Shown piece by piece: positions 1,116 to 28,550 of a stretch of DNA of 64,000 bases; the first letter of the stretch is position 1, and every line of letters starts with the position of its first letter. This DNA comes from Phycisphaerae bacterium. GTDB taxonomy: Bacteria; Planctomycetota; Phycisphaerae; UBA1845. The stretch is taken from the NCBI GenBank assembly GCA_963666835.2, contig CAXXGO010000006.1:2240001-2304000 (forward strand), written 5' to 3'. The notes under the pieces are model-generated. The model saw only the letters and a program-made list of their open reading frames with translations. It had not been told where the DNA came from and ran no database searches. The position numbers and the translations under genes are program-made.

Positions 1116-1216
1116 ATCGATACCCGGCCACGCGGTGCCGGCGACTGGCCCGCCAGTATAGAGGCTCGAGGGATCTGGCGTGGCGTGACCGATTGTAGAC
1201 GTTGACTTATTGCTAC

Positions 1217-4104: not shown

Positions 4105-4118
4105 AGAGGAGCGTACTA

Positions 4119-5738
4119 ATGACCGCAACAGAACAGCGATGTACGACGCGCGGCAGACGGTGTGGTTGGCTGGGCCTTCCGATAGCACTGTGCCTTTCGG
4201 TTCAGGTCTATGGGGCCACCTATACCGTTACGGGGATTCTCCACACAACCGACGGCCCGAATCCGGAAGTTAACGATGTTCCGGCAAGGTACATCAGGGT
4301 CATCGTCATGGATAAGGACGTTATCTTCGATGACGAGAAGGGAAGAGGGTACACCGGGCTGATCGGCCAGTTCTCGATTACGTTTACCGCTTCGGAGGCA
4401 CCTGATGTCTACATCAACGTCGAGCATGTCGGAATCGGCGTGGGCGGACACCTGGTTGAAGTGCGAACGGACATTGCCGACCCGGCGCCGATTCTCCTGG
4501 AGAACATCGAGGGGATTGTTCATTGGGATATTCCAGCAGGTACGTTGGGGTTAGGTACGTTACGCCTGAGCAATACACATCCCAACATCATAAACCAGAT
4601 GGGTGATGCTGTGCGGTTCCTTGAATCGCACGGGGGGTGGACCATGCCAGAAGATGTCGATGTACAGGCCCCGACGAACTCCGGAGGAAGTGCAGTGGCT
4701 GGTGATGCTTCATACGTGGAGATCTCCGCAGATGACTACGATCATCCGGGCTTTGGTGACGGAGCGTTGTCCAACATACATCATGAGGTGTTTCATTGGG
4801 CGGCATATCGGGCCTACGGCAATAGATGGCCGGCTCCTCCTTGTGACCCACCTGAGCACTATTCCGACACCGAGTCCTGCGAGGCATTTGCGATAATGGA
4901 GGGATCGGCCGAGTACTTTCAGACGATCTCGGCGGAGCCGGATAACATGAACATCCCACCCGGTCCCGAAGTATGGCGGGGTGAGGATGGGACCGGGCAT
5001 GATCACTCGGGCGAGATAGTCGAAGGTGCTTGCGCCTCAGTCATGTTGTCAGTAGCCGACGAACCTGGCGTCCTGGCTGTCCTCCTGAGCGATGCCCCCG
5101 ACTCCATCAGAGAGTTCAAGGACGGATACGTCGCTGACAAAGGGATGACTTCCGTAGCAGTCCGCGACTTCCTAGACCACTGCGCCGCCAACGGTATCGT
5201 ATATACACGAGGTAGGATCGGTGGTTTCGCTCCGGGCGACCCGCCGGACGTGGGTCCGCCTTCTGCGGGGAATCACAAGACGATTGACAACATTGTGTTT
5301 GTCCGCGGTGAGATTGAGCCCTCCATAGTCCAGTTGCCTGCGGGGGACCTTCGCCTTGCGGTCGGTTCCGCGACGATTGCCGCGGACCGGAAGGAGCTGG
5401 GTATCAAGCCGGCACTGCCGGGCCTTGCCGAGGCCAACGCTGGCGGATTCTCTTTCCTCGGTTCGGTGGGCTTTTCGTCACCCTTGATCTGGGACACAAC
5501 AGGTCACGCCGACGGCGACTACGACATCATCGCCCGCGCGCGGAACATCCACGGTTGGGTCGACACCTTTGACCCTGATTTCACCGGTGATTCTCATACT
5601 GCAACGGACTCGACCGAGAAGTGGCTTAAGACGTTGCAGACTTGGTACAACCAGGATGCTGTGCCTGATAACGACGATGAAGGGAAGGTGATTGTCGACA
5701 ACACAGCGCCGACCGTAACGGGGTTTCAACCGCTCTAG
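4119..5738 (+). CDS. Secreted zincin metallopeptidase (HExxH) with Ig-like C-terminal region
   Basis: GAGGAG RBS before ATG 4119; signal peptide LGLPIALCLSVQVYGA; HHEVFHW...MEGSAEYF gluzincin-like motifs; ends VIVDNTAPTVTGFQPL. Confidence 0.75.
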   Translation: MTATEQRCTTRGRRCGWLGLPIALCLSVQVYGATYTVTGILHTTDGPNPEVNDVPARYIRVIVMDKDVIFDDEKGRGYTGLIGQFSITFTASEAPDVYINVEHVGIGVGGHLVEVRTDIADPAPILLENIEGIVHWDIPAGTLGLGTLRLSNTHPNIINQMGDAVRFLESHGGWTMPEDVDVQAPTNSGGSAVAGDASYVEISADDYDHPGFGDGALSNIHHEVFHWAAYRAYGNRWPAPPCDPPEHYSDTESCEAFAIMEGSAEYFQTISAEPDNMNIPPGPEVWRGEDGTGHDHSGEIVEGACASVMLSVADEPGVLAVLLSDAPDSIREFKDGYVADKGMTSVAVRDFLDHCAANGIVYTRGRIGGFAPGDPPDVGPPSAGNHKTIDNIVFVRGEIEPSIVQLPAGDLRLAVGSATIAADRKELGIKPALPGLAEANAGGFSFLGSVGFSSPLIWDTTGHADGDYDIIARARNIHGWVDTFDPDFTGDSHTATDSTEKWLKTLQTWYNQDAVPDNDDEGKVIVDNTAPTVTGFQPL

Positions 5739-5893
5739 AAGGCTGGAATCGGGCTGGGAAGGAGTAAGAAGGGCTGAGAATCCCTGTTAGTGCGGTTTGG
5801 GGGTAGGATAGCCACGCCGCCGCTGACGGTTCGGATGCAAGAGGACGCAGAACGCGTACTGGTCACTATAGCCGCTAATCTAATGCCGCTCCT

Positions 5894-6456
5894 CGGCACC
5901 GGGCGGGTCACTCCGTTCGGTGCCGCGGGTGGTTTGCGCGATGCCCGGTGACAGTTCGCGGGCAGTGGCGGATGTCTTCTGGCTTCCGTTGTGCCCGGGC
6001 CGGGAGTGCTGTGAAGGCGAAACCGTGTGCTGCGCGGTGGGCGACGTTTGTTGCGGCGACGAATGTTGTGATCCGGAACGTTGTTGCGGGAACGGGGAGT
6101 GTTGCGCGGAGGAGTGTGAGGAGTGCCTGGACAACGGGTCGCTGTCGGGCGGAGCGGTAAGTGTGGTGCCGCAGGTCGTGTGCATTGGGCAGACGATCAC
6201 CTTTACCGTCGACGGCGTGGTCGATAGCGGCGGTCTGAAGCGGGTTGATTGCTCCAGCACCATCGACCTTCCGGCCGTGGAGCCGAGCTACACGTGGGTC
6301 ATCACGAAGCCGGACTCGACCACGGACAGCGGCTCGGGTGCGTCGGCCAACGTCACAACCGACCAGGCCGGAGTCTACTCATGCACCTTCACGGCCACCG
6401 CCAACCGCGACTGCCCCCCGGCGGATCTCGAACTCGCCCCGGCGATCGGCACGGCG
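5894..6456 (+). repeat. Cassette head repeat copy 2
   Basis: Near-identical to copies 1, 3 and 4. Confidence 0.95.
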
Positions 6457-8559
6457 ATTGAACTCCTATTGGACGCTCCGCCGGTTTCCTATTTGCCGGA
6501 GAACGGGAACACGGTGCAGTTGACGGCGACGATCGACGGAGGCACGGCCACGGACCGGATTCGGTTCGAGCTTCTTCAGGTCAGCGATTTCCCCGGCGAT
6601 GCCATGAATCACGGGACGCAATCCGGTGCGGATCCGGACTTCAAGTTCGAATCTGCCGGGAACCCGGGCTTCACCATCTCGTCTAATCAGTTGACGGCCA
6701 CGACGAACGCGGCTGTGGCCGGCGCCACGGTGACGATCAGCGCTTATGACTATGGGGCGAGGGCGAAGATCAAGGCTACGTTGGTGAATCTGGGCTGTGA
6801 GTCGGATGAGCGTGATATACCCCAAGATACGGACGGCGATTGGCTGCCCGATGCGTATGAGAACCTCCAGGCGGACAAGGACTCCGCTAGTGCCGATACG
6901 GACGGCGACGGTGTCCCGGACGGGGAGGAGGACGATGATCCTGAGCGCCCGGTATTGGCCAACGCAGGGCCGGATTCGTATCCCGGTGCCCGGACCGACC
7001 AGGGGCTGACCGGCGATGGCCTCGTCGCGTTCGAGGAGTATCGCGGGTTCTTCATCATGGGAACGCATACCCGGACAACGACGGAGACGAAGGATGTTTT
7101 TGTGGGGGTGGATGCTGCTCCGCCGAACGACATCTCCGTTCACCTCGGCTTTCTAACGAACCTGACCGGATTCGATATCCACGAGATCCAAGTTGCCACG
7201 CCACCTGCGGAATGGGCTGGAGCAGGGACTCGTTTCGTAAACTCGCAACGCGCTGGCATTCCGGGCGCAACGGATCAGCGTGCCCTTCGGGTAGTCCGGA
7301 ACGATACGCTTCAGGATGCTGCTGGGAATCCGTCTTTCGGCATAACCAATGAAATCCCCGGACAGTTGACGGTACAGTCGCCCAACGAAACGGATTATAT
7401 CGAGGTCAATGTGCAGTACCACTACTCCGGCCTGTATGGAACATTGCCGGGTACGGACGGAGTCTACGGCACGCCCGATGACACCACGCGGGCGCTGACA
7501 GCAGCCGAAGCCAATGACGCCCTCCGAGAGACCGTTGGGCATGAATGCGGACACGGCGTCCATATTGAACACAACTGGATTGTCGGAGATGAGCATCAGT
7601 TCGCCGAAGGACACGGCGAACCGGATTCGAACAACATCACAACCGGGCCGGACGGAGTCTGCGACACCGCGGCCGTCGGGAACGACGTACAGTTGATCCC
7701 GGTTGGGCAGGGGACGCCGGGTTCGGTCATTATCACAGACGGCGGTGACGGCCTCGATGCCGGAACACTCCTGTTCTTCGATGACATTATTGTCGGAGAT
7801 AATGTCGTTTCGGGGCCGGATGGTATTGCTCAATCCACGGCAGGTGCCAACGATGTGCAAGCGATTCCGGTCGGGCAAGGCTCCCCAAACACCGTCATCA
7901 TCACGGACGGAGGTGATGGTATCGACTCAGGAACGCTGGTTCAGGGGGACGACGTAATCAATGGAAACACCGTTACTTCGGGCCCGGACGGCGTTGCGCA
8001 GTCCACTGCGAGTGGCAACGACGTGCAGGTGATCCTGGTAGGACATGGATCGCCAGGCTCGATCATCGTTACGGGCGGCAGCGACGGGGTCAACTTGGGG
8101 ACGAACGTTCTGGGAGATGATCTCGTCGCAGGAAACACTGTCATTTCTGGCCCTGATGGCATCGCTCAGTCGACGGCCGGCGGCAACGATGTGCAAGCGA
8201 TTCCGGTTGGGCAGGGTCTGCCGAATCAACCAGCGGTGTCAACGGGAGCGGATGGGATCTCCGATTCGGTTGGGGCCGGCGATGACGTTCAACGGATTCC
8301 TTTGGGAAACGGCGAGCCCTACGCGATCGGGATCACGGCCGGCCCGGACGGCGTTTTGCAGGCAACCCCGTGGGGTGACGATACGGTCATTGCCCTGCCG
8401 GCGATAACCACGGGACCGGATGGCATTCTCGATACATACTCGGATGCCCCGGCGTACGGGGTTCCGAGCATCATGACGTCCGACCTGTTATTGCCGATTC
8501 CCAATACGTACAAGAGTGATGAACTTGACCAGGTACGTTTTCATTTGAAGCATCCATAG
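5920..8559 (+). CDS. Polymorphic module 2: Cys-rich head + Ig + DxDxD Ca-binding repeats + metzincin-like protease with repeat insertion
   Basis: DTDGDWLPDAYE, DTDGDGVPDGEE; GDGLVAFEEYRGF; HECGHGVHIEH (7540-7572); SIM Met-turn-like motif (~8467-8475). Confidence 0.75.
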   Translation: MPRVVCAMPGDSSRAVADVFWLPLCPGRECCEGETVCCAVGDVCCGDECCDPERCCGNGECCAEECEECLDNGSLSGGAVSVVPQVVCIGQTITFTVDGVVDSGGLKRVDCSSTIDLPAVEPSYTWVITKPDSTTDSGSGASANVTTDQAGVYSCTFTATANRDCPPADLELAPAIGTAIELLLDAPPVSYLPENGNTVQLTATIDGGTATDRIRFELLQVSDFPGDAMNHGTQSGADPDFKFESAGNPGFTISSNQLTATTNAAVAGATVTISAYDYGARAKIKATLVNLGCESDERDIPQDTDGDWLPDAYENLQADKDSASADTDGDGVPDGEEDDDPERPVLANAGPDSYPGARTDQGLTGDGLVAFEEYRGFFIMGTHTRTTTETKDVFVGVDAAPPNDISVHLGFLTNLTGFDIHEIQVATPPAEWAGAGTRFVNSQRAGIPGATDQRALRVVRNDTLQDAAGNPSFGITNEIPGQLTVQSPNETDYIEVNVQYHYSGLYGTLPGTDGVYGTPDDTTRALTAAEANDALRETVGHECGHGVHIEHNWIVGDEHQFAEGHGEPDSNNITTGPDGVCDTAAVGNDVQLIPVGQGTPGSVIITDGGDGLDAGTLLFFDDIIVGDNVVSGPDGIAQSTAGANDVQAIPVGQGSPNTVIITDGGDGIDSGTLVQGDDVINGNTVTSGPDGVAQSTASGNDVQVILVGHGSPGSIIVTGGSDGVNLGTNVLGDDLVAGNTVISGPDGIAQSTAGGNDVQAIPVGQGLPNQPAVSTGADGISDSVGAGDDVQRIPLGNGEPYAIGITAGPDGVLQATPWGDDTVIALPAITTGPDGILDTYSDAPAYGVPSIMTSDLLLPIPNTYKSDELDQVRFHLKHP
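7636..8430 (+). repeat. Intragenic 56-aa (168-nt) tandem repeats GPDG...NDVQxIPVGxG
   Basis: GPDG codons at 7645, 7813, 7981 and 8149 (168-nt period), followed by shorter units. Confidence 0.9.
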
Positions 8560-8577
8560 AAGTTAGGAGTCACTAGC

Positions 8578-9684
8578 ATGTTAACCAGCACATTGAAGAA
8601 TAGACGCCCAATCGGGCTCTTGCTGCTGCTGATTTCGCCGACTGGTGCCGCGCATTTGCTGCTGGCGGACACTGCTGTTAACGACGACGTGTCGGTTGCG
8701 TTGCATGCGTCAGTCGCCAATCTGGTGAGAGAGGCCGACCCCCAAAACCCGGACGGCGGAGACTATTATGAAGTGGACGCAGAATCGCTACGGATGATGC
8801 CCATCATCCTTCAAGTGAATCTCTACGCCCATCCGCGAGATACGACAGTGCCTTTGGCCAGTCGAACAGTGCATTGGACCGATGAGATCGAGATGTCTGT
8901 CGAGCGAGATGGACGGGACGTTGAAGGGTTCAGCCTGCGCCTGATCCCGGGATCGGAATTGGCCATATCGGCGGACCAAGCGCGTGTAGGTGATTGGAGA
9001 GATGCTCGCAGAAATCCGACCGCGTTGGCATCCAATGAGTCGCTTGCGTCGTTCTTCGAGTTATCGAGACCGAGACGTGAACCACTTCAGGGAGGAAGGT
9101 ATACGATCTTGCTGGGGCTTACTGACCGCGCCGAGGCGCTCCTTGGTGTGCGAGCTCTCACCTCGCGTGCCGTGGTCTTCGCCGTGAAGTCTCCTCGCCC
9201 GGAAGGGGACGATCTGTTCACCGAGGATCTCATCGAACGGCACTACTTGTGGGGTTGCTGGCTCTACAAGTTCGACAGGGTCGCCAGCAAGAAGGAGTTC
9301 GAGAAGGGCTGGGAGTTGGTTTCCGAGTACATCCGCGCCGGTGCCGGCGACGAACCTGAGCTGTGGAACATCACTCCGCGCTACCAGGCGTCGAGGATTG
9401 CCGGCTGGCTCGACGACAAGGAGCGACAAATCTCGTACCTGAGTCAACTGCTATCCAAAGACGCAACGGCCGCGAGCGAGGGAAGGGACTGTAAGATGCG
9501 TTTCTACCACTTTCATCGCGAGCGCGGCCATTTGCCAAGGAACGTGCGAGACGACCTCACGCGCGGTGTGAACCGGCTGTACGAACGAGTATATGGAAAG
9601 ACGATGAGCGGAAAGACCGTTACACCGCAGGTGCCGCCCGAGAAGAACTTCCCCGATGCATCCGGCGAGCCGGCAGACGAATAG
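8578..9684 (+). CDS. Signal-peptide protein, immunity candidate for module 2
   Basis: AGGAG RBS; MLTSTLKNRRPIGLLLLLISPTGAA N-terminus; starts 19 nt after the module 2 stop. Confidence 0.65.
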   Translation: MLTSTLKNRRPIGLLLLLISPTGAAHLLLADTAVNDDVSVALHASVANLVREADPQNPDGGDYYEVDAESLRMMPIILQVNLYAHPRDTTVPLASRTVHWTDEIEMSVERDGRDVEGFSLRLIPGSELAISADQARVGDWRDARRNPTALASNESLASFFELSRPRREPLQGGRYTILLGLTDRAEALLGVRALTSRAVVFAVKSPRPEGDDLFTEDLIERHYLWGCWLYKFDRVASKKEFEKGWELVSEYIRAGAGDEPELWNITPRYQASRIAGWLDDKERQISYLSQLLSKDATAASEGRDCKMRFYHFHRERGHLPRNVRDDLTRGVNRLYERVYGKTMSGKTVTPQVPPEKNFPDASGEPADE

Positions 9685-9708: not shown

Positions 9709-11703
9709 ATGAGTGAGTGCCACCTTGCGGCACCGGGCGGGTTGCTCCGTTCGGTGCCGCGGGTGGTTTGCGCGATGCCCGGTGACAGTTCGCGGGCAGT
9801 GGCGGATGTCTTCTGGCTTCCGTTGTGCCCGGGCCGGGAGTGCTGTGAAGGCGAAACCGTGTGCTGCGCGGTGGGCGACGTTTGTTGCGGCGACGAATGT
9901 TGTGATCCGGAACGTTGTTGCGGGAACGGGGAGTGTTGCGCGGAGGAGTGTGAGGAGTGCCTGGACAACGGGTCGCTGTCGGGCGGAACGGTCAGTGTGG
10001 TGCCGCAGGTCGTGTGCATCGGGCAGACGATCATCTTTTCCGTCGACGGCGTGGTCGATAGCGGCGGTCTGAAGCGGGTTGATTGCTCCAGCACCATCGA
10101 CCTTCCGGCCGTGGAGCCGAGCTACACGTGGGTGATCACGAAGCCGGACTCGACCACGGAAAGCGGCTCGGGTGCGTCGGCCAACGTCACAGCCGACCAG
10201 GCCGGAGTCTACTCATGCACCTTCACGGCCAACGCCGACCGCGAGTGCCCGCCGGCGGATCTCGAACTCGCCCCGGCGATCGGCACGGCCGCAGAGCTGG
10301 TGGACCTGTCCTTCGAGGGACTCGCTGCGGACGACGAGGACGACCCGGGCGGGTTCTTGTGCGTCGACGGGCCTGCTCCTCTGCCGGCGCTGCTCATCGA
10401 GGCCGACGGAGCGTTGACGAACGGGACCGTGGAGTTCGAGGTGGTCAGCGGCGAGAACCTGATTCAGATGTATAATGACGCGGCCGCAACCACTCCGGTC
10501 ACGTACTTCAATCAGTCGTGGCCGGTAGCGGATTTGCCCATAACGCGCTACGTTCGCGGTATCGAGGTCAGCGCCGCCCCCCGCGACGTAGAGTTCCGCC
10601 TGAGCTACACGGGTGACGGCGGACCTTGCGCCGATACAATGCGGTTGACGGTGGTGAAGGTCGATCTTAAGTCCTTGACATTTACGAGTGACCACGGGGT
10701 CTTGTTGGACAAGAACGACAACTTCGAAAAAGGCGGGGCGTCATTCGGAGAACCTGAGTGGGACGCCGACATACGCCCGCTTGGTGTGCCAATCTCGCAC
10801 ACGATGGGAGAGCACGTGACGGTCGACGTGGAAGTCGAGATCTCCCCACTCGCATTGCCGCCCACTCAGTTTGCTCTTGCCGGGACCGGTCCGCCCGGCT
10901 TCAATTTCGCTGACTTGCCTAGCTTGCACGGAGGCCAGAACGTCGTTCTTGCGACCTCAGCAGACACTGTCGACGAGCAGTTTCATTGGTTCGCGCCGTC
11001 GATCACGTGGCGAATCGAACGTGCCGGACGCCTCTTCCTGGAGACGGAGGCCAGTCCCAAACTGGTATACGTTACGATGGGCGCTCCGCGCGACACGGGG
11101 GCCGACCAACACCAAGCGACTCAGATTCGGATGGAGCGGGCCGTCCAATACGCCGGCGCAGTCGGCTCGCTGAATCCCCATGAGATTGTTGCCAAAGTGC
11201 GCGATGCCGCAGGCACTTATGATCTCAACGCCCCACGCCTCAACGCGTGGGAGGTGCCCGAGAAGGGCGGTGATTGCCAGTCAATCATCCGTTTCGTCGA
11301 GAAGGTAGTTAAGATGGTGGATGTACCAGGCACGTTCGAACATAAGCACATCTATGCCATCGAGACCGCTCCGGCGGTGGCCATAGAGGGTACTGCGACA
11401 GACGGCGGACTTAACGACAATATCCGCATTCATCCGACCCAACCTACGTGGACCTTGTCGTTGATCGATGGCACGCCAGGGTGCAACGCCTACGAGGCGA
11501 CCGCGAGCTACCTGGAGTGCAGCAAACTCCGATACTACCCTGGCGGTGTCCCGCTTGGTGTTATGGCCAATAAAGACGATGTGTTGAGGGTCTTCGCAAC
11601 CCTATCGTGGGTCGAGTTCGTTGGAGGGGTATGCACAGTCCGTGCGGTCGCGTACACGTATCCCGCGGTTCCTGCGCCGCCGGCGGTTCCGAACTGCCCC
11701 TAG
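9709..11703 (+). CDS. Polymorphic module 3: Cys-rich head + Ig-like domains + putative Cys-dependent (transglutaminase/papain-like) C-terminal domain
   Basis: Shared head; GGDCQSIIRFVEKVVKMVDVP resembles the catalytic-Cys helix of transglutaminase-like folds; no catalytic His identified. Confidence 0.6.
   Translation: MSECHLAAPGGLLRSVPRVVCAMPGDSSRAVADVFWLPLCPGRECCEGETVCCAVGDVCCGDECCDPERCCGNGECCAEECEECLDNGSLSGGTVSVVPQVVCIGQTIIFSVDGVVDSGGLKRVDCSSTIDLPAVEPSYTWVITKPDSTTESGSGASANVTADQAGVYSCTFTANADRECPPADLELAPAIGTAAELVDLSFEGLAADDEDDPGGFLCVDGPAPLPALLIEADGALTNGTVEFEVVSGENLIQMYNDAAATTPVTYFNQSWPVADLPITRYVRGIEVSAAPRDVEFRLSYTGDGGPCADTMRLTVVKVDLKSLTFTSDHGVLLDKNDNFEKGGASFGEPEWDADIRPLGVPISHTMGEHVTVDVEVEISPLALPPTQFALAGTGPPGFNFADLPSLHGGQNVVLATSADTVDEQFHWFAPSITWRIERAGRLFLETEASPKLVYVTMGAPRDTGADQHQATQIRMERAVQYAGAVGSLNPHEIVAKVRDAAGTYDLNAPRLNAWEVPEKGGDCQSIIRFVEKVVKMVDVPGTFEHKHIYAIETAPAVAIEGTATDGGLNDNIRIHPTQPTWTLSLIDGTPGCNAYEATASYLECSKLRYYPGGVPLGVMANKDDVLRVFATLSWVEFVGGVCTVRAVAYTYPAVPAPPAVPNCP
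9727..10290 (+). repeat. Cassette head repeat copy 3
   Basis: Near-identical to copies 1, 2 and 4. Confidence 0.95.
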
Positions 11704-11750
11704 TCGGGCGACAGCGGTTGTTGTATTGTGAGAGGTGCTGCAATCGGAGG

Positions 11751-12008
11751 AAGGGGGTATTGGGTTCGCTGCCCCTGGCTACGGCGGGCTTCGGCCCACG
11801 ATGGCGAACGGGGAACAACGGGCGCGCACGACCTGTCGGAGCAGCCCGCACCCCAAAGCAGCGGCTCGGGAAAGGCCGGACAGCGTCCATGAACCGGGAA
11901 ATCAAACCCGAGAACCTCGCCGCCTGGCCGGCCAAGCCGCCCCAGCGGCCGAGTGCTCAGCCATCCCGGCGGACTGCCGGACAGGGGCAGCGAACCCAAT
12001 ACCCCCTT
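11751..12008. mobile_element. 258-bp MITE-like element with perfect 27-bp terminal inverted repeats and 7-bp flanking direct repeat
   Basis: AAGGGGGTATTGGGTTCGCTGCCCCTG at 11751-11777, reverse complement at 11982-12008; TCGGAGG on both sides (11744-11750, 12009-12015). Confidence 0.8.
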
Positions 12009-12065
12009 TCGGAGGATTGGCCTTCCTTTCACAAGGAGTTGAGGCAACCGCGAAAGGAGATGGAT

Positions 12066-12884
12066 ATGAATATACTACAGCTATTTGGATGTATCACATT
12101 ACTATCGGGGATAGTGGTTGTGGCTGGAGGATCTCAAGCGGCGAGCCAGACGGCTCGGCTCAAAGAACGGGAGGCGGAGTTCTACCATCTAGATTTTGGC
12201 CGGAGTCTCGTTCGCGACCGCCCCAGCAACGAGTTCGTGGATCTGACGTTCGAGGCGATTCCGACGGAACTCGTCGATCAGATGTACAGTTACCTGGCCT
12301 TCTCGGTGCATTGGGCAGCTCATCCGCAAAAGCAGGGAGAGGGGCGCGTGGGAGGCGATTTCCGTGTACGTGCCTACGCTGCGCACGGCAAGACAGAGGA
12401 CGACCTGATCGAGTACGCGTGGACGCGGTTCGGACAGGACCTTCGTCTAGTTGCGGGGCTCAATGCGATGCGACTGGACATTAACTTGGGCGACGTCTTA
12501 CGAAATCGAGAAATGGACGATTACGGGTCCAACGCCGTGGCAAGAACCAAGGGTCTTCTTTCGCAGATCCTCCGACTGGCGGGGGTTGATAGAGATGGAC
12601 GCAGTTTCGAGGTCTATCTTCCCTGGCCGGAGGAGCTCGTAGAAGGAACACGGTTCTGCTCGAATTTGGATACTAATCTCATACGCATGAAGAAGTGGCA
12701 CGAACGCGTTGACGTGTATGTCCATGATGGGATCCTGTCCGTTTTGATCTACAAGAAGGTGGAACAGTTGATTGGGTATCAAGACGGCTCGACGTGGTTT
12801 CCCAGCGAGTTTCGGGAATTGGTGCACAGGAAGGCCGAGAAACAGGCCAAGGCGGGCCAATCCGAGAGCGTCAGCAAAGAGTAG
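12066..12884 (+). CDS. Signal-peptide protein, immunity candidate for module 3
   Basis: AAGGAG RBS at 12054-12059; MNILQLFGCITLLSGIVVVAGGSQAA; the ORF-track start at 11607 runs through the MITE and is unlikely. Confidence 0.7.
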   Translation: MNILQLFGCITLLSGIVVVAGGSQAASQTARLKEREAEFYHLDFGRSLVRDRPSNEFVDLTFEAIPTELVDQMYSYLAFSVHWAAHPQKQGEGRVGGDFRVRAYAAHGKTEDDLIEYAWTRFGQDLRLVAGLNAMRLDINLGDVLRNREMDDYGSNAVARTKGLLSQILRLAGVDRDGRSFEVYLPWPEELVEGTRFCSNLDTNLIRMKKWHERVDVYVHDGILSVLIYKKVEQLIGYQDGSTWFPSEFRELVHRKAEKQAKAGQSESVSKE

Positions 12885-13052
12885 GAGACCGCCTAGGGAA
12901 GAAGGAAACCGGGAGGGAGATCGGGAAGGATTGTCGGCGATGCCTCGATATTGCGTGAGGGTCGCTGAGTCCTTCCTGACCCGGCCGGGACCATTCCGGC
13001 CAACGTATTCGGGCAGTCGATTCAGGCTCCGGCCACGTATTACGTTCGCACC

Positions 13053-14912
13053 GTGGCGCCCGGTGATGCCGAGCTACGGCTGACGCTCGAAAGCGATCCC
13101 GATGGGTGTGAAGACCGCGTCATGTTGAGGATCTGGCCTACCGATCTGGACGGCGATGCCGACCATGATGCGATAATCGATGATGTCGGTCCCGACGACG
13201 ACCTCGAGGATACTCTGCCGGGCGTTATTGTCCTGTGCAATCAGGACGACGACAACGGAGACGCGGTTGTCGACAATGCGGACGGTGTCATTAACGGGCC
13301 GACTGACGGCGACGATCTGGCGCCGGTCGTGATTCGGATTATGCCGGACCTTCCGTCAGCCTGGACGGTTACGCTTGCTCTGGAGAATCCGACCAACGTT
13401 GCGGCCGGGTTGGGCGCGGGCGACGTCGTTCGCGTTTACCCGGAACTGACGGACGGTACGCCCAGTCTGCTGGGGCCGGGGTCGACCAGCTTCACTCTGC
13501 CCGAGACCGCTGCTGCGCACGATGTCGATCTCACGACGTTGCGTACCGGTGATGTGCCTTTGTGGGTAGAGGGGCTGGAGTTTGCGGCCGAGGTGAAACT
13601 CCGTCTAACGGTCAACGACGATGCCGGCGTTCTGGTTTGCGAGGACGTGATTCAGTTGAAGGTGTCGCCGCTGATTCTGCTGTCGAATCTCGAACCGGCG
13701 GAGACGAGTTATGTATCGCAAGTAGTCGGGACGCAGCCCGTCACGGCCGATTCGTATGCCTATACCACTCAGAGATTCCCGGACCAGACGCCACCGGGAA
13801 TTGTGGATACGATTATCTACCCGCCGGACAATAGCGGTTGGGACGTCTGGGCCCGGGACGAGCTTCAGTTTTGCTACCAGGATTCGCCCGAGAAGAGCAT
13901 GTACGTTGTGCTGGATTCGAAGCGGGACCGCCAGGGAATCGGCTTGCAGCCGTTCCCGCTGACCTTGCTCGGGCCGGATTTCGGCCATATCCAGATAGAA
14001 GATGGCATCTACTCTGCAAACTCGTTCGATTCCTTCGGGAATCTTGAGGTCTCACCTCCGTGCACAACCGCTGTCGGTGACTATCCGCTGGGCCGGATCT
14101 ACTACGGGGATGATGACACACTGGACCTCGAAGATCGCATGGACTCCACGCTCCGAGAGTTTCTTGCTCGGCAAGGCGTGCAGAATCCCTTCACATTGGT
14201 AAGTAGCTGGCTCTTTGTGGGGCACGTGGACGAGTTGATGTCAATCGTTCCAAACCCCTATGCCACTCACGGATGGACAGTCCTGCTGGCCGATCCGGTG
14301 CTGGCCCTCGACATCCTCACCGGTGATGCCGTGGTGAGCGGAGGAGTTGACCAGGCACTCCATATTCCGAAGTACAATGACTACAGCGTAGTACAGTTGG
14401 ATGCGCTGCTCGGGCGCACGACGTCAGATGGTTCGATGACAATCGAACAATACAATGCGGCGGGCGGTGCTTTGGCGTTACACCTCCAGGACTGTAGGGA
14501 TGCCCTTGAGACGGAGCTCGAGTTAAATATGTCCGAGGACTTCTATACCGTTCCTGTGCTGTTTGACTCGGTTGACGGCACAGCGCTAGCGATTACTCCG
14601 AATCTGGTTAACGGCGGCGTATTCGGGACGACGTTGATCGCGCCGGATCCCTTTCTTTGCGCCGCTACGGAGGAGGATGTCAACGCGAACTATGTGCTCG
14701 ATCCCGGCGAGGACACGAACAGCAACTTCATGCTGGACACCACACGTGACCCGTTCCAGGTCTGGCTTAACGCGAACGTGCCGCCCGGCGTCAACGTAGA
14801 GTACGTAGACGATTGGTTCCTTTATCATATTGAGCGCGGCGAGGTCCATTGCAGTTCGAATGAGAAGCGGGCGATACCAAGTGGCCCTGCATGGTGGGAC
14901 TCGATGCCTTGA
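13053..14912 (+). CDS. Protein-arginine deiminase (PAD family) module, 5'-truncated (frame open from 12969)
   Basis: WARDE, DSFGNLEVSPP, GHVDE and GEVHCSSN match the PAD catalytic Asp/His/Asp/Cys motifs; CNQDDDNGD central-domain motif; no signal peptide or clear RBS. Confidence 0.9.
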   Translation: MAPGDAELRLTLESDPDGCEDRVMLRIWPTDLDGDADHDAIIDDVGPDDDLEDTLPGVIVLCNQDDDNGDAVVDNADGVINGPTDGDDLAPVVIRIMPDLPSAWTVTLALENPTNVAAGLGAGDVVRVYPELTDGTPSLLGPGSTSFTLPETAAAHDVDLTTLRTGDVPLWVEGLEFAAEVKLRLTVNDDAGVLVCEDVIQLKVSPLILLSNLEPAETSYVSQVVGTQPVTADSYAYTTQRFPDQTPPGIVDTIIYPPDNSGWDVWARDELQFCYQDSPEKSMYVVLDSKRDRQGIGLQPFPLTLLGPDFGHIQIEDGIYSANSFDSFGNLEVSPPCTTAVGDYPLGRIYYGDDDTLDLEDRMDSTLREFLARQGVQNPFTLVSSWLFVGHVDELMSIVPNPYATHGWTVLLADPVLALDILTGDAVVSGGVDQALHIPKYNDYSVVQLDALLGRTTSDGSMTIEQYNAAGGALALHLQDCRDALETELELNMSEDFYTVPVLFDSVDGTALAITPNLVNGGVFGTTLIAPDPFLCAATEEDVNANYVLDPGEDTNSNFMLDTTRDPFQVWLNANVPPGVNVEYVDDWFLYHIERGEVHCSSNEKRAIPSGPAWWDSMP

Positions 14913-14941
14913 CAGGAGAGAGACTCTTCGGAGATAGAATC

Positions 14942-16177
14942 ATGAACATGACACGTAAGAGTTTTACATGCATCACGCGGGCGGTTGTGTTTCTCGCCTT
15001 GCCGCCATTCTTCGCGGGCACAACAAGGGCCGGGCAGGATCTGGCGGCACTGGAACGCGTGGCGAAAGCCGGTGGCGAGGAGTATATCCGATTGCGCAAC
15101 GCGCTGCTGAAAACACATCCCGAGCCGTGGGATGTCGCCAATGCCGCAGCGCATTCTTGGGATACCGGGATTGCGGCCTTCATTCTGAATGAGCGACAGA
15201 AGGCGGCGGATATGTTTGTTAAATGGGATGCGCTACGCCTGCGGGTTTATGCTGATGGGACGTCCTACGCACTCCACCAAGGCACGTCAGACGCCGCCGC
15301 GGCATTTCTACTTGAGAAGATATGGAAGAGTCCTTCGGAGAGGGAACGCGACAGAGCCTACCGGCAGTTCTGCCGGGGGCACAAGGAGGAGTTCGCTCAT
15401 GCCGGCGATCCAGCATTATGGACCGCTACCTGGGAGCAGTGTGAGGACGAGCAAATCCGATACGCAGTGCTTTATCAGGTTTGCGCTTCCTGCGATCCCT
15501 CCACGCAGCCAATTATCGTGGGGCTCCTAGCGGAAGAGGGCGACTCACTGCCTGTACGTCGGTTGAGGGCTCAGTGCATGAGTGGCCTGTGGCACCGCGA
15601 TACGGAGCAGACTGTGGACGCTGTTCTCGGGGTCTGGGATGTTCTGAGCAAAACCGGCCACTGGAAATACAGCGGTGCGGGCGTACTGGCCAACAACAGC
15701 AGTGAACGGGCCCGTCGGTTTGTGCATGATCTTGTGCTCGATTCTACTGAGGACGAGGATCTGCGGGCCGAGATAGTGATCAAGTGCTGCCTTCGGCCGC
15801 ACCCGGGTGACCTCGAAGTGTTCCGCAGGTTCTTTACCGGGCCGGGGTCGGATAAAATGAAAAAGGACGCACTACGCGGGCTCTACAGGTATCCGCTCAG
15901 CGGCATTCGGCCGCTTCTTCGAGAACTCCTGGTCGAGTCGACCGACCCTGTGATGATCGCCGCCGCGGCACTGACCTTCACCCAAGCGCACCGCTGGGCA
16001 AAAGACGTGCCCGAAGCGACGAAGGCTGAGGATATTGCATTGTTTGAGGAAGTGCTGCGTACGAAGGAGGGCTTATCGGGCGCTACGCGCGTCCACATAG
16101 ACATGTACATCCAGGAGCTCCGGGCCAAGCCGGGCGATCCGCGGCCGACGCTGCCGGATCCTCCGCAGGATAGGTGA
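14942..16177 (+). CDS. Exported HEAT-repeat protein, paralog A (PAD immunity candidate)
   Basis: GGAGA RBS; signal peptide AVVFLALPPFFAGTTRA; helical repeats; paralogous to the next two genes. Confidence 0.75.
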   Translation: MNMTRKSFTCITRAVVFLALPPFFAGTTRAGQDLAALERVAKAGGEEYIRLRNALLKTHPEPWDVANAAAHSWDTGIAAFILNERQKAADMFVKWDALRLRVYADGTSYALHQGTSDAAAAFLLEKIWKSPSERERDRAYRQFCRGHKEEFAHAGDPALWTATWEQCEDEQIRYAVLYQVCASCDPSTQPIIVGLLAEEGDSLPVRRLRAQCMSGLWHRDTEQTVDAVLGVWDVLSKTGHWKYSGAGVLANNSSERARRFVHDLVLDSTEDEDLRAEIVIKCCLRPHPGDLEVFRRFFTGPGSDKMKKDALRGLYRYPLSGIRPLLRELLVESTDPVMIAAAALTFTQAHRWAKDVPEATKAEDIALFEEVLRTKEGLSGATRVHIDMYIQELRAKPGDPRPTLPDPPQDR

Positions 16178-16345: not shown

Positions 16346-17581
16346 ATGAGCATGAGACATAAACGTATCATCTGCACCGTAGGAGTCTTCGCGACCGTCG
16401 CCTTGCCGCTGTTCTTGGCATTGACGACGCGAGGAGGAGAGGATTTCGCGCGACTGGAGCGCGTGGCCAGAGCCGAAGGCGACGAGTATGTCCAATTGCG
16501 CGATGCGCTACTTGAGACGCACCCTGAACCGTGGGACGTTGGTGTTGCGGCGGGCCAGTCGTGGGATGCCGGGGTGATGGCGTTCATCCTGAACGCCCGC
16601 CGTGGTGCAAAGGACACGTTTAGGGGTTGGGACGCACTAAGTCCTCGGTACACTGCATCTGGTCGAAGTTATAGCCTCTCTGGCAAGGATTGGACGAGCG
16701 TATGGGCATTCCTGATCGAGAAGATATGGAAGGGGGAGACGGCTAGAGAGAGGGACGGTGCGGACTATGATCTCCAACAATACTGCAGAGAGAGCACCAT
16801 AGAGCTGGGGCATCTGGCCCTCTGGCATGCCATATGGGATGGTTGTGATGATGAGCGGTTGCAGTCTGTTGCGGTGTTCCAGTTGTGTTCGAATCCGGAT
16901 CCATCCACCCAGCCAATTATCGTGGAGCTTCTGAAGGGCGGGAATGGCTCGTTGGACGCGCGTCGACTGAGGGGTCAGTGCATGAGTGGCCTGTGGTACC
17001 GGGATACGGAGCAGACTGTGGACGCTGTTCTCGGCGTCTGGGATGCTCTGAGCAAGACCGGCCACTGGGAATACAGTGGGGCGGGCGTACTGGCCCGCAC
17101 CAGCAGCGAACGCGCCCGGCGGTTTGTCTATGACCTTGTGCTCGATTCTAGTGAGGACGAGAGGCTGCGCGCCGAGACGTTGATGCACTTCTGCCATCGC
17201 CCGCAGCCGGGCGACATCCAAGTGTTCCGCAAGTTCTTTGCGGGACCGGGTTCGGATAAGATGAAGTGGGATGCACTGGGTGGGCTGTACAGGTATCCGC
17301 TCAATGACATTCGCCCGCTTCTTCGTGAACTTCTCATGGACTCGACTGACCCGAAGATGATCGCGAGTGCCGCGTTTGCGCTGAGCAAGGCCGACCTCTC
17401 TACGAAGGATGTGCCCGATGCGACGAAGGCGGAGGATATTGCACTGTTCGAGGAGGTTCTGCGAACAAGAGAGGACTTGCATGAAACGGCTCGCGTTCAC
17501 ATAGACCTGTACATTCGGAGGCTCCGGGCCAAGCCGGGCGATCCGCGGCCGACGCTACCGGATCCTCCGCAGGATAGGTGA
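16346..17581 (+). CDS. Exported HEAT-repeat protein, paralog B
   Basis: TTCGGAGA RBS; MSMRHKRIICTVGVFATVALPLFLALTTRG; same C-terminus LRAKPGDPRPTLPDPPQDR. Confidence 0.75.
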   Translation: MSMRHKRIICTVGVFATVALPLFLALTTRGGEDFARLERVARAEGDEYVQLRDALLETHPEPWDVGVAAGQSWDAGVMAFILNARRGAKDTFRGWDALSPRYTASGRSYSLSGKDWTSVWAFLIEKIWKGETARERDGADYDLQQYCRESTIELGHLALWHAIWDGCDDERLQSVAVFQLCSNPDPSTQPIIVELLKGGNGSLDARRLRGQCMSGLWYRDTEQTVDAVLGVWDALSKTGHWEYSGAGVLARTSSERARRFVYDLVLDSSEDERLRAETLMHFCHRPQPGDIQVFRKFFAGPGSDKMKWDALGGLYRYPLNDIRPLLRELLMDSTDPKMIASAAFALSKADLSTKDVPDATKAEDIALFEEVLRTREDLHETARVHIDLYIRRLRAKPGDPRPTLPDPPQDR

Positions 17582-17749: not shown

Positions 17750-18982
17750 ATGAGCATGAGACATAAACGTATCATCTGCACCGTAGGAGTCTTCGCGACC
17801 GTCGCCTTGCCGCTGTTCTTGGCATTGACGACGCGAGGAGGAGAGGATTTCGCGCGACTGGAGCGCGTGGCCAGAGCCGAAGGCGACGAGTATGTCCAAT
17901 TGCGCGATGTGCTACTTGAGACGCACCCTGAACCGTGGGACGTTGGTGTTGCGGCGGGCCAGTCGTGGGATGCCGGGGTGATGGCGTTCATCCTGAACGC
18001 CCGCCGTGGTGCAAAGGAAGAATTCAAGGGTTGGGACGCGCAACGTCCTCAGCCGACAGCCTCTGGCCATAGTTACGACCTCTGCAGCAGGGATTGGACT
18101 AGCGCATGGGCATTCCTGATGGAAAAGACCTGGAAAGGGGAGACGGCTAGAGAGAGGGACGGTGCGGACTATGACCTCCAACAATACTGCAGAAGCGCCA
18201 TAGGGTCGGGTTACCTGGACCTTTGGCACGCCATATGGGACGAGTGCGACGATGAACGGTTCCGCTTGGTTGCGGTGCTTCAGTTGTGTTCGAATACGGA
18301 TCCATCCACCCAGCCAATTATCGTGGAGCTTCTGAAGGGCGGGAATGGCTCGTTGGACGCGCGTCGACTGAGGGGGCAGTGTATGAGTGGCCTGTGGTAC
18401 CGGGATACGGAGCAGACTGTGGACGCTGTTCTCGGCGTCTGGGATGCTCTGAGCAAGACCGGCCACTGGAAATACAGTGGGGCGGGCGTTCTGGCCAACA
18501 ACAGCAGCGAACGGGCGCGGCGGCTTATCCATAAGCTCGTACTCGACCCTTCCGAGGACGAAAAACTACGCGCTGAGACTGTGTGCCGGTGCTGCCTGCG
18601 GCCGCACCCGGGCGACCTCGAAGTGTTCCGCAAGTTTTTTGCCGGACCGGGTTCGGTTAAGATGAAAAGCGATGCACTACGCGGATTGTACAGGTATCCG
18701 CTCAATGGTATTCGGCCGCTTCTTCGAGAACTCCTGGTCGAGTCGACCGACCCTGGGATAATCGCCGACGCGGCAGTGACCTTGACCCAAGCGCACCGGT
18801 GGGCGAAAGACGTGCCGGAAGCGACGAAGGCTGAGGATATCGCATTGTTTGAGGAAGTGCTGCGTACGAAGGAGGGCTTATCGGGCGCTACGCGCGTCCA
18901 CATAGACATGTACATCCAGGAGCTCCGGGCCAAGCCGGGCGATCCGCGGCCGACGCTGCCGGATCCTCCGCAGGACAGGTGA
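17750..18982 (+). CDS. Exported HEAT-repeat protein, paralog C (mosaic of B and A)
   Basis: N-terminal part nearly identical to B, C-terminal part nearly identical to A; spacers 16178-16345 and 17582-17749 are near-identical. Confidence 0.75.
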   Translation: MSMRHKRIICTVGVFATVALPLFLALTTRGGEDFARLERVARAEGDEYVQLRDVLLETHPEPWDVGVAAGQSWDAGVMAFILNARRGAKEEFKGWDAQRPQPTASGHSYDLCSRDWTSAWAFLMEKTWKGETARERDGADYDLQQYCRSAIGSGYLDLWHAIWDECDDERFRLVAVLQLCSNTDPSTQPIIVELLKGGNGSLDARRLRGQCMSGLWYRDTEQTVDAVLGVWDALSKTGHWKYSGAGVLANNSSERARRLIHKLVLDPSEDEKLRAETVCRCCLRPHPGDLEVFRKFFAGPGSVKMKSDALRGLYRYPLNGIRPLLRELLVESTDPGIIADAAVTLTQAHRWAKDVPEATKAEDIALFEEVLRTKEGLSGATRVHIDMYIQELRAKPGDPRPTLPDPPQDR

Positions 18983-19003: not shown

Positions 19004-19233
19004 GTGCCTGATAACGACGACGAAGGGAAGGTGATTGTCGACAACACAGCGCCGACCGTAACGGGGTTTCAACCGCTCTAGAAGGCTGGAATCGGGCTGG
19101 GAAGGAGTAAGAAGAGCTGAGAATCCCTGTCAGTGCGGTTTGCGGGTAGGATAGCCACGCCGCCGCTGACGGTTCGGATGCAAGAGGACGCAGAACGCGT
19201 ACTGATCACCATAGCCGCTAATCTAATGCCGCT
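19004..19233 (+). repeat. Duplicate of ~5661-5890 (3' tail of the zincin gene plus spacer); gene relic at 19004-19081
   Basis: GTGCCTGATAACGACGA...CTCTAGAAGGCTGG...CTAATCTAATGCCGCTCC occurs at both places with few substitutions. Confidence 0.95.
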
Positions 19234-19798
19234 CCGCGACACCGAACGGGTTGATCCGTTCGGTGCCGCGGGTGGTTTGCGATGGGCGGTGCCAGTATGC
19301 GGGCAGTAGCGGAGTTTCTCTGGCGCGTGTTGCGCTGCAGGTCGGGAGTGCTGTGAAGGCGAAACCGTGTGCTGCGCGGTGGGCGACGTTTGTTGCGGCG
19401 ACGAATGTTGTGATCCGGAACGTTGTTGCGGGAACGGGGAGTGTTGCGCGGAGGAGTGTGAGGAGTGCCTGGACAACGGGTCGCTGTCGGGCGGAACGGT
19501 CAGTGTGGTGCCGCAGGTCGTGTGCATCGGGCAGACGATCATCTTTTCCGTCGACGGCGTGGTCGATAGCGGCGGTCTGAAGCGGGTTGATTGCTCCAGC
19601 ACCATCGACCTTCCGGCCGTGGAGCCGAGCTACACGTGGGTGATCACGAAGCCGGACTCGACCACGGAAAGCGGCTCGGGTGCGTCGGCCAACGTCACAA
19701 CCGACCAGGCCGGAGTCTACTCATGCACCTTCACGGCCAACGCCGACCGCGAGTGCCCGCCGGCGGATCTCGAACTCGCCCCGGCGGTCGGCACGGCG
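19234..19798 (+). repeat. Cassette head repeat copy 4 (5' portion more diverged)
   Basis: Hairpin retained; near identity to the other copies from ~19343. Confidence 0.9.
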
Positions 19799-21031
19799 GA
19801 CGAGTTGGTGGAAGTGACCGTTGAGGCAGAGGACGGGCTCATCGATTGCATGGAAGGACGAGTCGTTACGTTCACGGCAACGGTTGAGGGTGTTGTGCCG
19901 GAGAGCCAGAAGCCTATCGAGTACACTTTCCACTTTGAGCACGCGGATGGTACGCCGTGGACCCATACAATCGTGTCGCACATGTTGCAGGTGGACTACG
20001 ATGCCATCGCGTCACAGGTGCCGGAGGGCAATCCGGATCACTTCTTCGATACACCCATCTACGTCGAAGTGCAACTCCAGGCGTGCGATCCCGTGACGTC
20101 GGATACGCTGGATATTCGAGTCTATGAGCTGTGGATCAACGACTTTCGGCACCACGCCAGTGGCCGAGACTGGCAGGTTGTTGTTGGCGAGGCGATCGAG
20201 TATGCCGCCACGGCGTCATCGGACTGCACCAGCTGGGATTGGGATATGGAAGATGGGTTCCCCGATGTGTGGAATCCGTCGGGAGGTAATGCGAAGACGG
20301 GCGCCAACATGGTAATCCCTTTTACCGATCTTCCGGGGCTGGATGGCGATGATTTCGGCGACGAGTATGGCACCGTTAACGTGTTCTGCGAGGACGGGGA
20401 GGGAAACAACCACCGAGTCTACTCCGCCGATCTCGCGCCGCCGAGACTCGCCAAGGTGTTCTCTGATCCGGCGCTGGACACGAGTGGCAGCCCGCCTAAC
20501 CAAAGTTCTCCTCCATGTTGGTTTCTCTTCTGGCAGAATGGCGCATGTCCCGACCTAGATGAGTTCGAATACAGGCACATGAATGCGTACGGAGAGTCTC
20601 AAGTCATCTTCGGCTGGTTCTGGGATACACACATCCTTAGGGTCGGCATCCCAGCGGGCGGGACGCATTATCCCAATGGCCTATTGATCAACGGCGTGCA
20701 ATATGGAGGTGCATCGGGAATCGACTGCTGCGCGGAAGTGGTCGTTCATGAGATGCACCACAACGTCCTCTCCGTCGAAATAAACGACGGAGCGACAGAT
20801 ACTGATCCGGCGAATCCGCCCGCGGCACCGCACATCGGCGTTTGGTTGCCCGATGCCAGAGAACCCGGACTGGGATGCTCGAACGCGAATAAGGACACTT
20901 TCAATCTGGCAATTCTCAAGGCTCCGGTATACATTGGATATGGCGATAATGAGTACTCTGCCGTAACCACGGCACATGGAAGCATCGGTGTTGCAGCGAA
21001 GGACTGGTCTAAAGGAGGAAAGCAATGGTAG
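19367..21031 (+). CDS. Polymorphic module 4: Cys-rich head + Ig + HExxH zincin-like C-terminal domain; no proper start (frame open from 19310)
   Basis: PPCWFLFW, GIDCCAEVVVHEMHH, GDNEYSA, DWSKGGKQW; in-frame TAG at 19307 precedes RSFSGACCAAGRECC. Confidence 0.7.
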   Translation: MCCAVGDVCCGDECCDPERCCGNGECCAEECEECLDNGSLSGGTVSVVPQVVCIGQTIIFSVDGVVDSGGLKRVDCSSTIDLPAVEPSYTWVITKPDSTTESGSGASANVTTDQAGVYSCTFTANADRECPPADLELAPAVGTADELVEVTVEAEDGLIDCMEGRVVTFTATVEGVVPESQKPIEYTFHFEHADGTPWTHTIVSHMLQVDYDAIASQVPEGNPDHFFDTPIYVEVQLQACDPVTSDTLDIRVYELWINDFRHHASGRDWQVVVGEAIEYAATASSDCTSWDWDMEDGFPDVWNPSGGNAKTGANMVIPFTDLPGLDGDDFGDEYGTVNVFCEDGEGNNHRVYSADLAPPRLAKVFSDPALDTSGSPPNQSSPPCWFLFWQNGACPDLDEFEYRHMNAYGESQVIFGWFWDTHILRVGIPAGGTHYPNGLLINGVQYGGASGIDCCAEVVVHEMHHNVLSVEINDGATDTDPANPPAAPHIGVWLPDAREPGLGCSNANKDTFNLAILKAPVYIGYGDNEYSAVTTAHGSIGVAAKDWSKGGKQW

Positions 21032-22014
21032 GCGTGTTCTGTCGACGTGGCGCGTTTTTATGGTATCTGGCGACTGCAGTGGCGCCCATGGGTGGGCTTG
21101 GCCGCGTTGCGGCGGACGGACCAGAGCCTGGGTGCGATCGTCTCGCTCTTGAGTTGGTTTCCCCTGATGTCAAAGCACGCGAGGCGGCACTCGCCGAGTT
21201 GAATCGCGTGAGACGTCGGTCGAAGGGTGAATTCGACTTAGAACATAAGCTCCTGCTCTTTAAGCAGATTGTGGCATTGGACTCGCCAAACTACGCGTAC
21301 AGGGCGACCTGCTTCCTCGCAAAACTACCCGTGGATGATGAGGTTCTGACGTTGGCAAAGCGGGCCGTTGCGGACGAGAAGTGTGGATTGAGTCTGCTGA
21401 TCGGCAGTCTGGCGTACGCCGAAGGACATGCGCCGGAGGAGTTCGGCAGCTTCTTCAGAAGTCGCAAGTACGAGGAACATGACAAGGCAGTTTTGGCGCT
21501 GTTTGCAGCTTCGGAGGCGGTCCAGGAAATCAGACATGCGCACTTCGGGAGCTTGGTTGATAGCTACCTGACGTGGCAGCCGGGAGACGTGGCCGACACC
21601 GAGAACCCGTTCCGGCCGGCCATCCTGCGCGCCGGTAACTCCATCGTTCCCGAATTGCATGCCGCCTTGAGCACGTGTGGGCAAAACCGGGGATCGGCTA
21701 TCAAGGTCGTGTGGATACTGGGAGAGATCGGTAGTCCTGAGAGTTTCGACCTGTTACTGACTGAGTATTTGGCGGCCCCGTCTCACAGAGTTGGCATCTC
21801 CCTCGGGGCATGCCTCGGTAGCCTTAACGTGGAGCGACTTTTTGCGGAGATAGACGATACGCGGGTGCTGAAACAGCTTCTCAGTGACGTTTATGGGCGT
21901 GATTGGGGGCGTGTCGAGAGTTTCGCGTTGCCTGCAATAAGGAACGATATGATCAAGAACCTGCAAGTGATACGGGAGAACTGCAAACGCCGGAGTGTAC
22001 CGATGTTGGGCTAG
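21025..22014 (+). CDS. Exported HEAT-repeat protein, immunity candidate for module 4
   Basis: ATG overlaps the end of module 4; signal-like N-terminus; SPDVKAREAALAEL, VWILGEIGSPESFDLL. Confidence 0.7.
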   Translation: MVGVFCRRGAFLWYLATAVAPMGGLGRVAADGPEPGCDRLALELVSPDVKAREAALAELNRVRRRSKGEFDLEHKLLLFKQIVALDSPNYAYRATCFLAKLPVDDEVLTLAKRAVADEKCGLSLLIGSLAYAEGHAPEEFGSFFRSRKYEEHDKAVLALFAASEAVQEIRHAHFGSLVDSYLTWQPGDVADTENPFRPAILRAGNSIVPELHAALSTCGQNRGSAIKVVWILGEIGSPESFDLLLTEYLAAPSHRVGISLGACLGSLNVERLFAEIDDTRVLKQLLSDVYGRDWGRVESFALPAIRNDMIKNLQVIRENCKRRSVPMLG

Positions 22015-24743: not shown

Positions 24744-24814
24744 CGCTCTCCGGCACGGCATGAGGTGAGGGCACGACGTATGTATCATAGCCGTCTGCTC
24801 GTTGGAGGCGAGGC

Positions 24815-28467: not shown

Positions 28468-28550
28468 AGGGTAGCATAGCGTATGTAGCTAAAGGCGTGG
28501 GGGTGTGCGCAGACGCAACCCGGCGGCGGACTACAAGGGATGTGAGGTTA

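Follow-up and report, generated by a model that had tools for sequence, protein, structure and literature searches.

A headless PADI-type protein-arginine deiminase (PAD) is encoded at 12969..14912 (+) of the window, the 64,000-nucleotide stretch of Phycisphaerae DNA analysed here, within an array of polymorphic-toxin type. The best explanation, which we hold to be probable, is that this frame represents the orphaned C-terminal cassette of a polymorphic toxin that Phycisphaerae export by Sec, with immunity provided by H, the exported family encoded directly behind it. Judged from sequence, a real PADI within a real array of this type would be a new toxin/immunity class in a known kind of system, and the conserved PAD-H pairing suggests that bacteria use citrullination as a so far unrecognised weapon, paired with a protein antidote.

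The PAD frame runs for 647 codons from TGA 12966 to a stop at 14910-14912, with no internal stops in the open reading frame. The complete PAD motifs claimed in the original prediction (WARDE, DSFGNLEVSPP, GHVDE and GEVHC) were all located within 12969-14912, in agreement with matches to Pfam PAD (PF03068; E 1.2e-61, 209 bits against a curated cut-off of 25) and to human PAD4 (E 4.9e-43, motifs in register). The catalytic domain occupies 13632..14912 (+), where D297 (13857), H419 (14223), D421 (14229) and C628 (14850) align with the PAD4 catalytic motifs; we take Asp297, His419, Asp421 and Cys628 to be catalytic from the residue roles in PAD4. An AF2 model of this catalytic part (residues 222-647) reached a pLDDT of 87.6 and matched PAD4 in Foldseek with E 1e-29 and TM 0.75. 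These results confirm the frame as a PADI-type deiminase with intact catalytic residues, and a genome-wide search returned it as the sole PAD of the 6.0-Mb genome, whose named relatives belong to Phycisphaerae. It is preceded by an acidic PAD_M-equivalent domain (13143..13670, +), which gave no match to Pfam PAD_M by itself; a clade profile of this domain matched the middle domains of animal PADIs and also the stalk repeats of head-PAD fusions. Its acidic PAD_M-like calcium-site motif and the DS..D motif are retained. At two further positions, presumably calcium ligands, the frame is altered: Arg takes the place of the Gln preceding the first catalytic Asp, a change confined to this frame (1/13 clade rows), and the next ligand, a Glu, is Gln. 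The enzyme had been described as a Ca-dependent PADI; the type assignment stands, and calcium dependence is uncertain because WARDE replaces the (W)AQD of the other 12/13 rows.

The frame begins within an Ig-like stalk remnant (12969..13142, +) that is broken off mid-domain and shares 59% identity with protein P0016 and 33% with module 3. PAD residues 4-90 align with P0016 residues 34-124 at the higher identity. That the frame is a decapitated gene starting in mid-domain is now more firmly shown, because P0016 continues upstream of the aligned region. The by-eye alignment to module 3 on which this had been based proved genuine but remote (29/88 identical, pairwise E 3e-7). The frame encodes no signal peptide. 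Its candidate starts are limited to GTG 13053, ATG 13122 and TTG 13125, with no ribosome-binding site evident at any of them, and a promoter and terminator scan gave nothing exceeding shuffles. At the DNA level, the 5' end showed no homology to the shared heads of the array above shuffles and a marginal similarity to module 3 (score 42 against a shuffle maximum of 39). The hairpin that marks cassette boundaries elsewhere in the array was not found in front of the PAD. Head DNA and boundary hairpin are both absent, and the window PAD is therefore probably a silent, displaced orphan rather than the swappable effector tip originally proposed. The simplest history would be that cassette 3 inserted by recombination into a former head-PAD gene, within the stalk, stranding the PAD. 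Its present role is probably at most that of a donor for patch exchange.

Just upstream of the window lies the master gene M0 (G000:C6:2236529-2239567), encoding a signal peptide, an acidic region, a Cys-rich region made of repeats, a PKD-like head and an HExxH tip. The 3' part of its HEAT-like exported partner is at 15..1115 (+). Four head-bearing cassettes on the + strand end in differing tips, each with a partner gene behind it. Cassette 1 (1256..4104) comprises the shared head and tip at 1256-2455 and an exported partner at 2455-4104, cassette 2 (5920..9684) a head and HExxH tip at 5920-8559 and an exported partner at 8578-9684. Cassette 3 (9709..12884) carries a head, Ig stalk and Cys/His tip at 9709-11703 with an exported partner at 12060-12884, and cassette 5 (19367..22014) a head and HExxH tip at 19367-21031 with a HEAT-like partner at 21025-22014. 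A stand-alone, headless exported HExxH protein lies at 4080..5738 (+), and an additional exported HEAT-like gene begins at 22161, after cassette 5. About 450 nt of the head are repeated at 95% DNA identity across M0 and the four window cassettes, so that a constant exported N-terminus is joined to variable C-terminal domains. Sec signal peptides are predicted on array proteins, M0 included; the N-terminus of the cassette partners is clearly hydrophobic in three and weaker in cassette 5. The head (Cys-rich, PKD-like and acidic Ig stalk) had no curated Pfam or NCBIfam match. No dedicated secretion gene was found within the array; the genome encodes five secretins and T6SS sheath genes outside it. 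Glycosyltransferase genes precede the array, and EpsI, exosortase and PEP-CTERM-like genes follow it (23958-30091).

Several side observations were made on this region and its relatives. The cassette 3 tip (10660-11700) belongs to an unnamed family with a Cys/His pattern found in several phyla (Atlas score 0.96), and a transglutaminase lead for it was weak (0.78). A 265-nt MITE-like element with 27-nt perfect terminal inverted repeats (11751-12008) sits between cassette 3 and its partner. Short direct and inverted, REP-like repeats at 23264-23666 recur at several other places on C6, and PEP-CTERM-like genes likewise adjoin L050, L125 and L126. A second master gene (G000:C5:181000-195316, L274) is 84% identical to M0 across the first 400 residues; it bears an HExxH tip, and two partner genes, further HExxH tips that are orphans and a transposase-like ORF accompany it.

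The boundary element is a GC-rich hairpin of about 55 nt at the 5' edge of each of the four head-bearing window cassettes (1205..1266, 5879..5939, 9713..9773 and 19222..19282, all +). A hairpin profile returned 16 strong copies in the genome: four in the window, eight in an Rhs array, three in a C5 array and one elsewhere. Fifteen of these fall in three polymorphic arrays (that of the window, G000:C6:1062639-1079487 and G000:C5:182345-189115), of which the Rhs array has orphan Rhs ends and the C5 array is the second Cys-rich master array. The hairpin was not found in the loci examined from other genomes. It may serve as a signal for recombination or insertion. The wider Rhs locus (L272, G000:C6:1057715-1080622) also contains small partner genes and, beside a hairpin copy, the reverse transcriptase of a group II intron; by eye, a group-II-intron-like ORF is present in the PAD array L042/L043 as well.

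Repeats at 5661-5938 and 19004-19281 flank a 13.3-kb block. The second copy lies directly behind the last H gene, H3; it duplicates the 3' terminus of the stand-alone HExxH gene, and a short motif in common marks the junction. Strain-level comparison rested on contigs from other sequencing runs (X3 and X6). The X3 contig, from a different study, covers 10454-15628, and the PAD is headless there as well. Across the first catalytic Asp, a patch (13720..14045, +) is replaced in frame in X3 between near-identical flanks, and P0009 matches this form, 34 of its 35 differences from the window PAD falling at residues 251-355. Cassette 2 shows a comparable patch in X3 at 7107-7228. A single X6 contig (depth 2.1) links the H3 end and a head to the cassette-2 tip, which would mean that the cassettes are ordered differently or that the block between repeats 5661 and 19004 forms a circle or tandem. 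Among the strain contigs, none joined a head to the window PAD. Coverage of H2 and H3 was low in run X3, with no bridging contig, and fewer H copies may be the reason. The MITE-like element is missing from the X3 contig. Decay of the PAD to a pseudogene with neighbours present by chance would account for the missing signal peptide, head DNA and start with a ribosome-binding site. It is difficult to reconcile with 647 stop-free codons and with a headless layout that recurs in another study's contig with an in-frame patch exchange, and we regard it as very unlikely. Silence of the window copy is itself likely.

Intact relatives were sought among longer proteins, and this search for PAD fusions gave eight matches. 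P0001 (L044) combines a transmembrane segment, an M0-like domain (E 2e-8), Cys-rich repeats and a PAD (52%); P0002 carries Cys-rich repeats and Ig domains like those of module 3 (E 3e-24), and P0003 Cys-rich repeats and a signal peptide. P0011 and P0014 (L125) fuse the window's own head (E 1e-15 to 1e-21) to a PAD. A total lack of head-PAD fusions in any genome had been named among the grounds for abandoning the original prediction; such fusions exist in other genomes, and that objection therefore falls. The window head was present in 20/279 genomes of the order, and the 29 loci read carried head tips of at least seven unrelated families, PAD included. A profile built from 11 stalk repeats, with the PAD-adjacent domain excluded, matched the middle region of animal PADIs (amphioxus E 4e-11, frog E 5e-9, in a 30-sequence test set whose best shuffled or reversed control scored 0.88). 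The PAD-adjacent profile in turn matched, in L223, a repeat from the stalk of a protein with a non-PAD tip (E 7e-7). These matches make PAD_M one member of a stalk-repeat family.

Three H paralogs, mutually 63-68% identical, follow the PAD on the + strand. H1 (14942..16177) is the putative cognate immunity partner, H2 (16352..17581, start approximate) a putative orphan immunity gene, and H3 (17756..18982, start approximate) a mosaic with an H2-like N-terminal half and a C-terminal end identical to that of H1. A hydrophobic N-terminus was measured for H1 and H2, and the first 45 residues of H3 are the same as those of H2. The original description of three exported HEAT paralogs was correct as to paralogy, while Pfam HEAT_2 matched below its cut-off (E 7.5e-5 to 0.015) and the AF2 model of H1 gave an alpha-solenoid (pLDDT 92) with a single beta-hairpin at mature residues 70-77. 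Armadillo/HEAT solenoids were its best Foldseek matches, at low TM, and searching the ESM Atlas with H recovered generic HEAT clusters only, with low recognition. Divergence of H1 from H2 and H3 is greatest at residues 61-150 (about 40%), and the C-termini are homogenised. H1 alone is likely to be the cognate partner of the window PAD; H2 and H3 resemble orphan immunity genes against other PAD variants. No PAD C-terminal stubs were detected in the spacers before H2 and H3.

The association of H with PAD was assessed across 160 PAD loci (the best 80 of 119 metagenome matches and the best 80 of 111 genome matches). A metagenome scan with a single PAD sequence had yielded no confirmed locus, and the loci were found by an alignment-based scan. 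H lay directly behind the PAD in 14/15 close-clade loci, defined within this set by full-length PAD matches at ≥41% identity, and in 0/145 of the remaining loci. In the one exception, L122, an assembly gap interrupts the PAD. Some loci are near-duplicates (L042/L043; L122-L124 together with the G516 loci; L047/L048, which share one data set), leaving roughly 11 independent loci among the 14. Linkage of this kind, within the best 80 of each of the two match sets, refutes chance adjacency of PAD and H. The proposal of dedicated HEAT inhibitors is supported in part, as a conserved, specific PAD-H pairing and not as three inhibitors of one enzyme, given that H2 and H3 differ from H1 N-terminally.

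Across 12 pairs, PAD and H identities were correlated (Mantel rho 0.77, p 1e-4), a result that reflects co-inheritance and not contact because kin share operons. Mean identity was 26% for H and 54% for PAD, and by this sequence measure H diverges twice as fast as PAD. An H1 search of 279 genomes of the order found matches in six. The nine matches outside the window's own genome comprised six directly behind a PAD or PAD end, two solo copies and one fragment separated from a nearby PAD by an assembly gap. The solo copies are in G336 and G148 (94-95% complete), both without a PAD match. An H profile matched 105 of 401 genomes of the class; full-length matches were confined to the own genome, G299, G148 and G336, and the rest were generic HEAT. 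Tips without a head, and immunity genes that stand alone or in tandem, thus occur in the window array, in stub-plus-partner units of L044 (ordered head-PAD, H, PAD stub, H, next cassette), G032 and G516, and as the two solo H genes.

In a quick tree of 110 PAD domains (SH-aLRT without bootstrap, midpoint root), the window PAD fell in a 21-row clade (SH-aLRT 100) separate from the cyanobacterial/animal clade. The gene behind the PAD is tip-specific, with H in the close clade and other partners in other PAD clades. A second, long-branch Phycisphaerae group has a different exported partner family (H') behind the PAD, and in G032 H' occurs three times in tandem with a PAD C-terminal stub before each copy. 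Downstream ORFs were surveyed in the 143 loci with DNA behind the PAD, and a close ORF was present in 83. One exported family accounted for 32/83, its named members belonging to a Myxococcota/proteobacterial sister clade; no locus named as cyanobacterial or actinobacterial belonged to the partner clusters of this survey. This sister partner family is homologous to H (HHalign 95%, E 3e-8). Homology of H to H' was unsupported (HHalign 2%), that to a third partner family weak (21-45%), and that to the partners associated with extracellular contractile injection systems (eCIS) was rejected (0.8%), although by eye the two have a similar G..Y...R/E motif.

The sister-clade PADs are short and often lipoprotein-like, with a hydrophobic N-terminus in 17/32 against 5/101 of the others, and show no sign of polymorphic heads. 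Lipoprotein-like PADs with an exported partner include L066, L076, L083, L151, L154, L182 and others. No partner gene accompanies the five stand-alone PADs L033-L035, L037 and L038, which come from another Phycisphaerae family and speak against a toxin role; at least L035 and L038 carry a motif that we take to resemble a planctomycete export motif. The sister-clade pairs fit a housekeeping enzyme with its inhibitor or chaperone equally well, and so an alternative in which the PAD is an exported, non-toxic enzyme with a private inhibitor or folding chaperone, H guarding the producer's periplasm only. The modular proteins would then be a repertoire of surface enzymes that remodel the matrix, release nutrients or disarm cationic peptides. 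AprA-AprI and staphopain-staphostatin are parallels of an enzyme with a dedicated inhibitor or chaperone. The 32 sister loci without polymorphic heads, the peptidase-like rather than nuclease tips of the array, and its position between glycosyltransferase genes and an exosortase/EpsI/PEP-CTERM cluster all agree with this alternative. Self-protection alone hardly explains solo H without a PAD match, stub-plus-partner tandems, the fast divergence of H or a boundary element common to an Rhs array, and we consider it unlikely, though the main competitor to immunity by H.

A further alternative is suggested by the hairpin of the partners. In the sister family an Arg (Arg-x-Gly) is kept in 31/32 rows at a hairpin that aligns with that of H, and the partner might be the substrate of the PAD, citrullinated at the hairpin tip as a signalling or kin-recognition mark. 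The position is variable in the H family, being Ala in H1, H2 and H3, and we give this idea very little credence compared with immunity by H.

PAD tips also occur in a different delivery context. In L118 and L188, the PAD terminates a DNA_circ_N/OmpA/PG-binding protein among baseplate and spike genes, a placement shared with eCIS-associated toxins, and the L118 cluster includes a contractile sheath gene. L188, a Methanotrichaceae record, also carries a paralog with an identical head type and another tip. The genes behind these two PADs are related to each other (37%, E 2e-36) and have no signal peptide. In supplement file 4 of Geller et al. (2021, PMC8213781), the number of pfam03068 genes in eCIS loci is zero.

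A secreted master with a constant N-terminus, a variable tip, a gene behind the tip, headless cassettes and poly-immunity tandems are features that the window array shares with polymorphic toxin systems (Rhs, CDI, MafB). It differs from them in a head without a curated Pfam/NCBIfam match and in exported partners. HEAT repeats are listed as a planctomycete immunity class paired with Tox-REase-7, and metallopeptidase and papain-like tips are described, in the searched text of Zhang et al. (2012, PMC3482391), where the strings "deiminase" and "citrullin" do not occur. Catalytic residues, fold and a PAD_M-like domain are common to the window PAD, animal PADI1-4 and cyanobacterial PADI, whereas the window clade is separate, lacks PAD_N, is fused to export heads and has a partner gene. 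The cyanobacterial enzyme citrullinates many proteins and requires calcium, according to the searched text of Cummings et al. (2021, PMC8826395), in which "planctomyc", "toxin" and "secret" were not found. The PF03068 enzyme of Streptomyces citrulassin maturation deiminates a peptide in vivo, and the searched part of that report describes Streptomyces PAD neighbourhoods as highly diverse and lacking conserved context (bioRxiv 10.1101/2020.07.16.207027). In contrast, the window PAD clade has a conserved neighbour, H. Porphyromonas PPAD (PF04371) is likewise a bacterial citrullinating enzyme, but is a secreted, host-directed virulence factor, and we know of no immunity gene for it. The same part of the Streptomyces report states that the PPAD family lacks significant sequence homology to PF03068 (bioRxiv 10.1101/2020.07.16.207027). 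No PAD toxin or PAD immunity protein was found in the full-text literature searched, with most subscription journals outside its scope.

We propose that the full-length toxin, consisting of a signal peptide, Cys-rich repeats, an Ig-like stalk and the PAD, would be exported by Sec and then reach the surface. The exported PAD would citrullinate arginines of envelope or periplasmic proteins in neighbouring cells, a target suggested by the enzyme family. H would bind and block it in the periplasm of the producer and its kin, as PAD-H linkage, the orphans and the matching location suggest. In the window, H1 and its two diverged copies would persist as a small poly-immunity array. Whether citrullination is a widespread unrecognised interbacterial weapon is, in our estimate, evenly balanced. 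On that broader reading, PADI tips were recruited at least twice, by Sec-exported Cys-rich Phycisphaerae proteins and as contractile-injection cargo in bacteria and an archaeon. Alpha-solenoid inhibitors would match the location of delivery, and an ancestrally Arg-tipped hairpin would plug the active site as a pseudo-substrate.

The array defines an unannotated secreted polymorphic protein family of Phycisphaerae, with a hairpin-marked cassette boundary common to an Rhs array. If the toxin interpretation is true, it would provide a function for a large part of bacterial PADIs, and irreversible arginine modification would join the chemistries of interbacterial toxins. Human PADIs are drug targets in autoimmunity, and natural protein inhibitors of this fold may be found in the partner families; were the weapon widespread, its alpha-solenoid partners would be such inhibitors. 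The homology of stalk repeats to animal PAD_M bears on the origin of PADI calcium regulation, and under the same broader reading animal PADIs would carry, as their calcium-binding middle domain, a single copy of the repeat that forms the stalk of such exported proteins.
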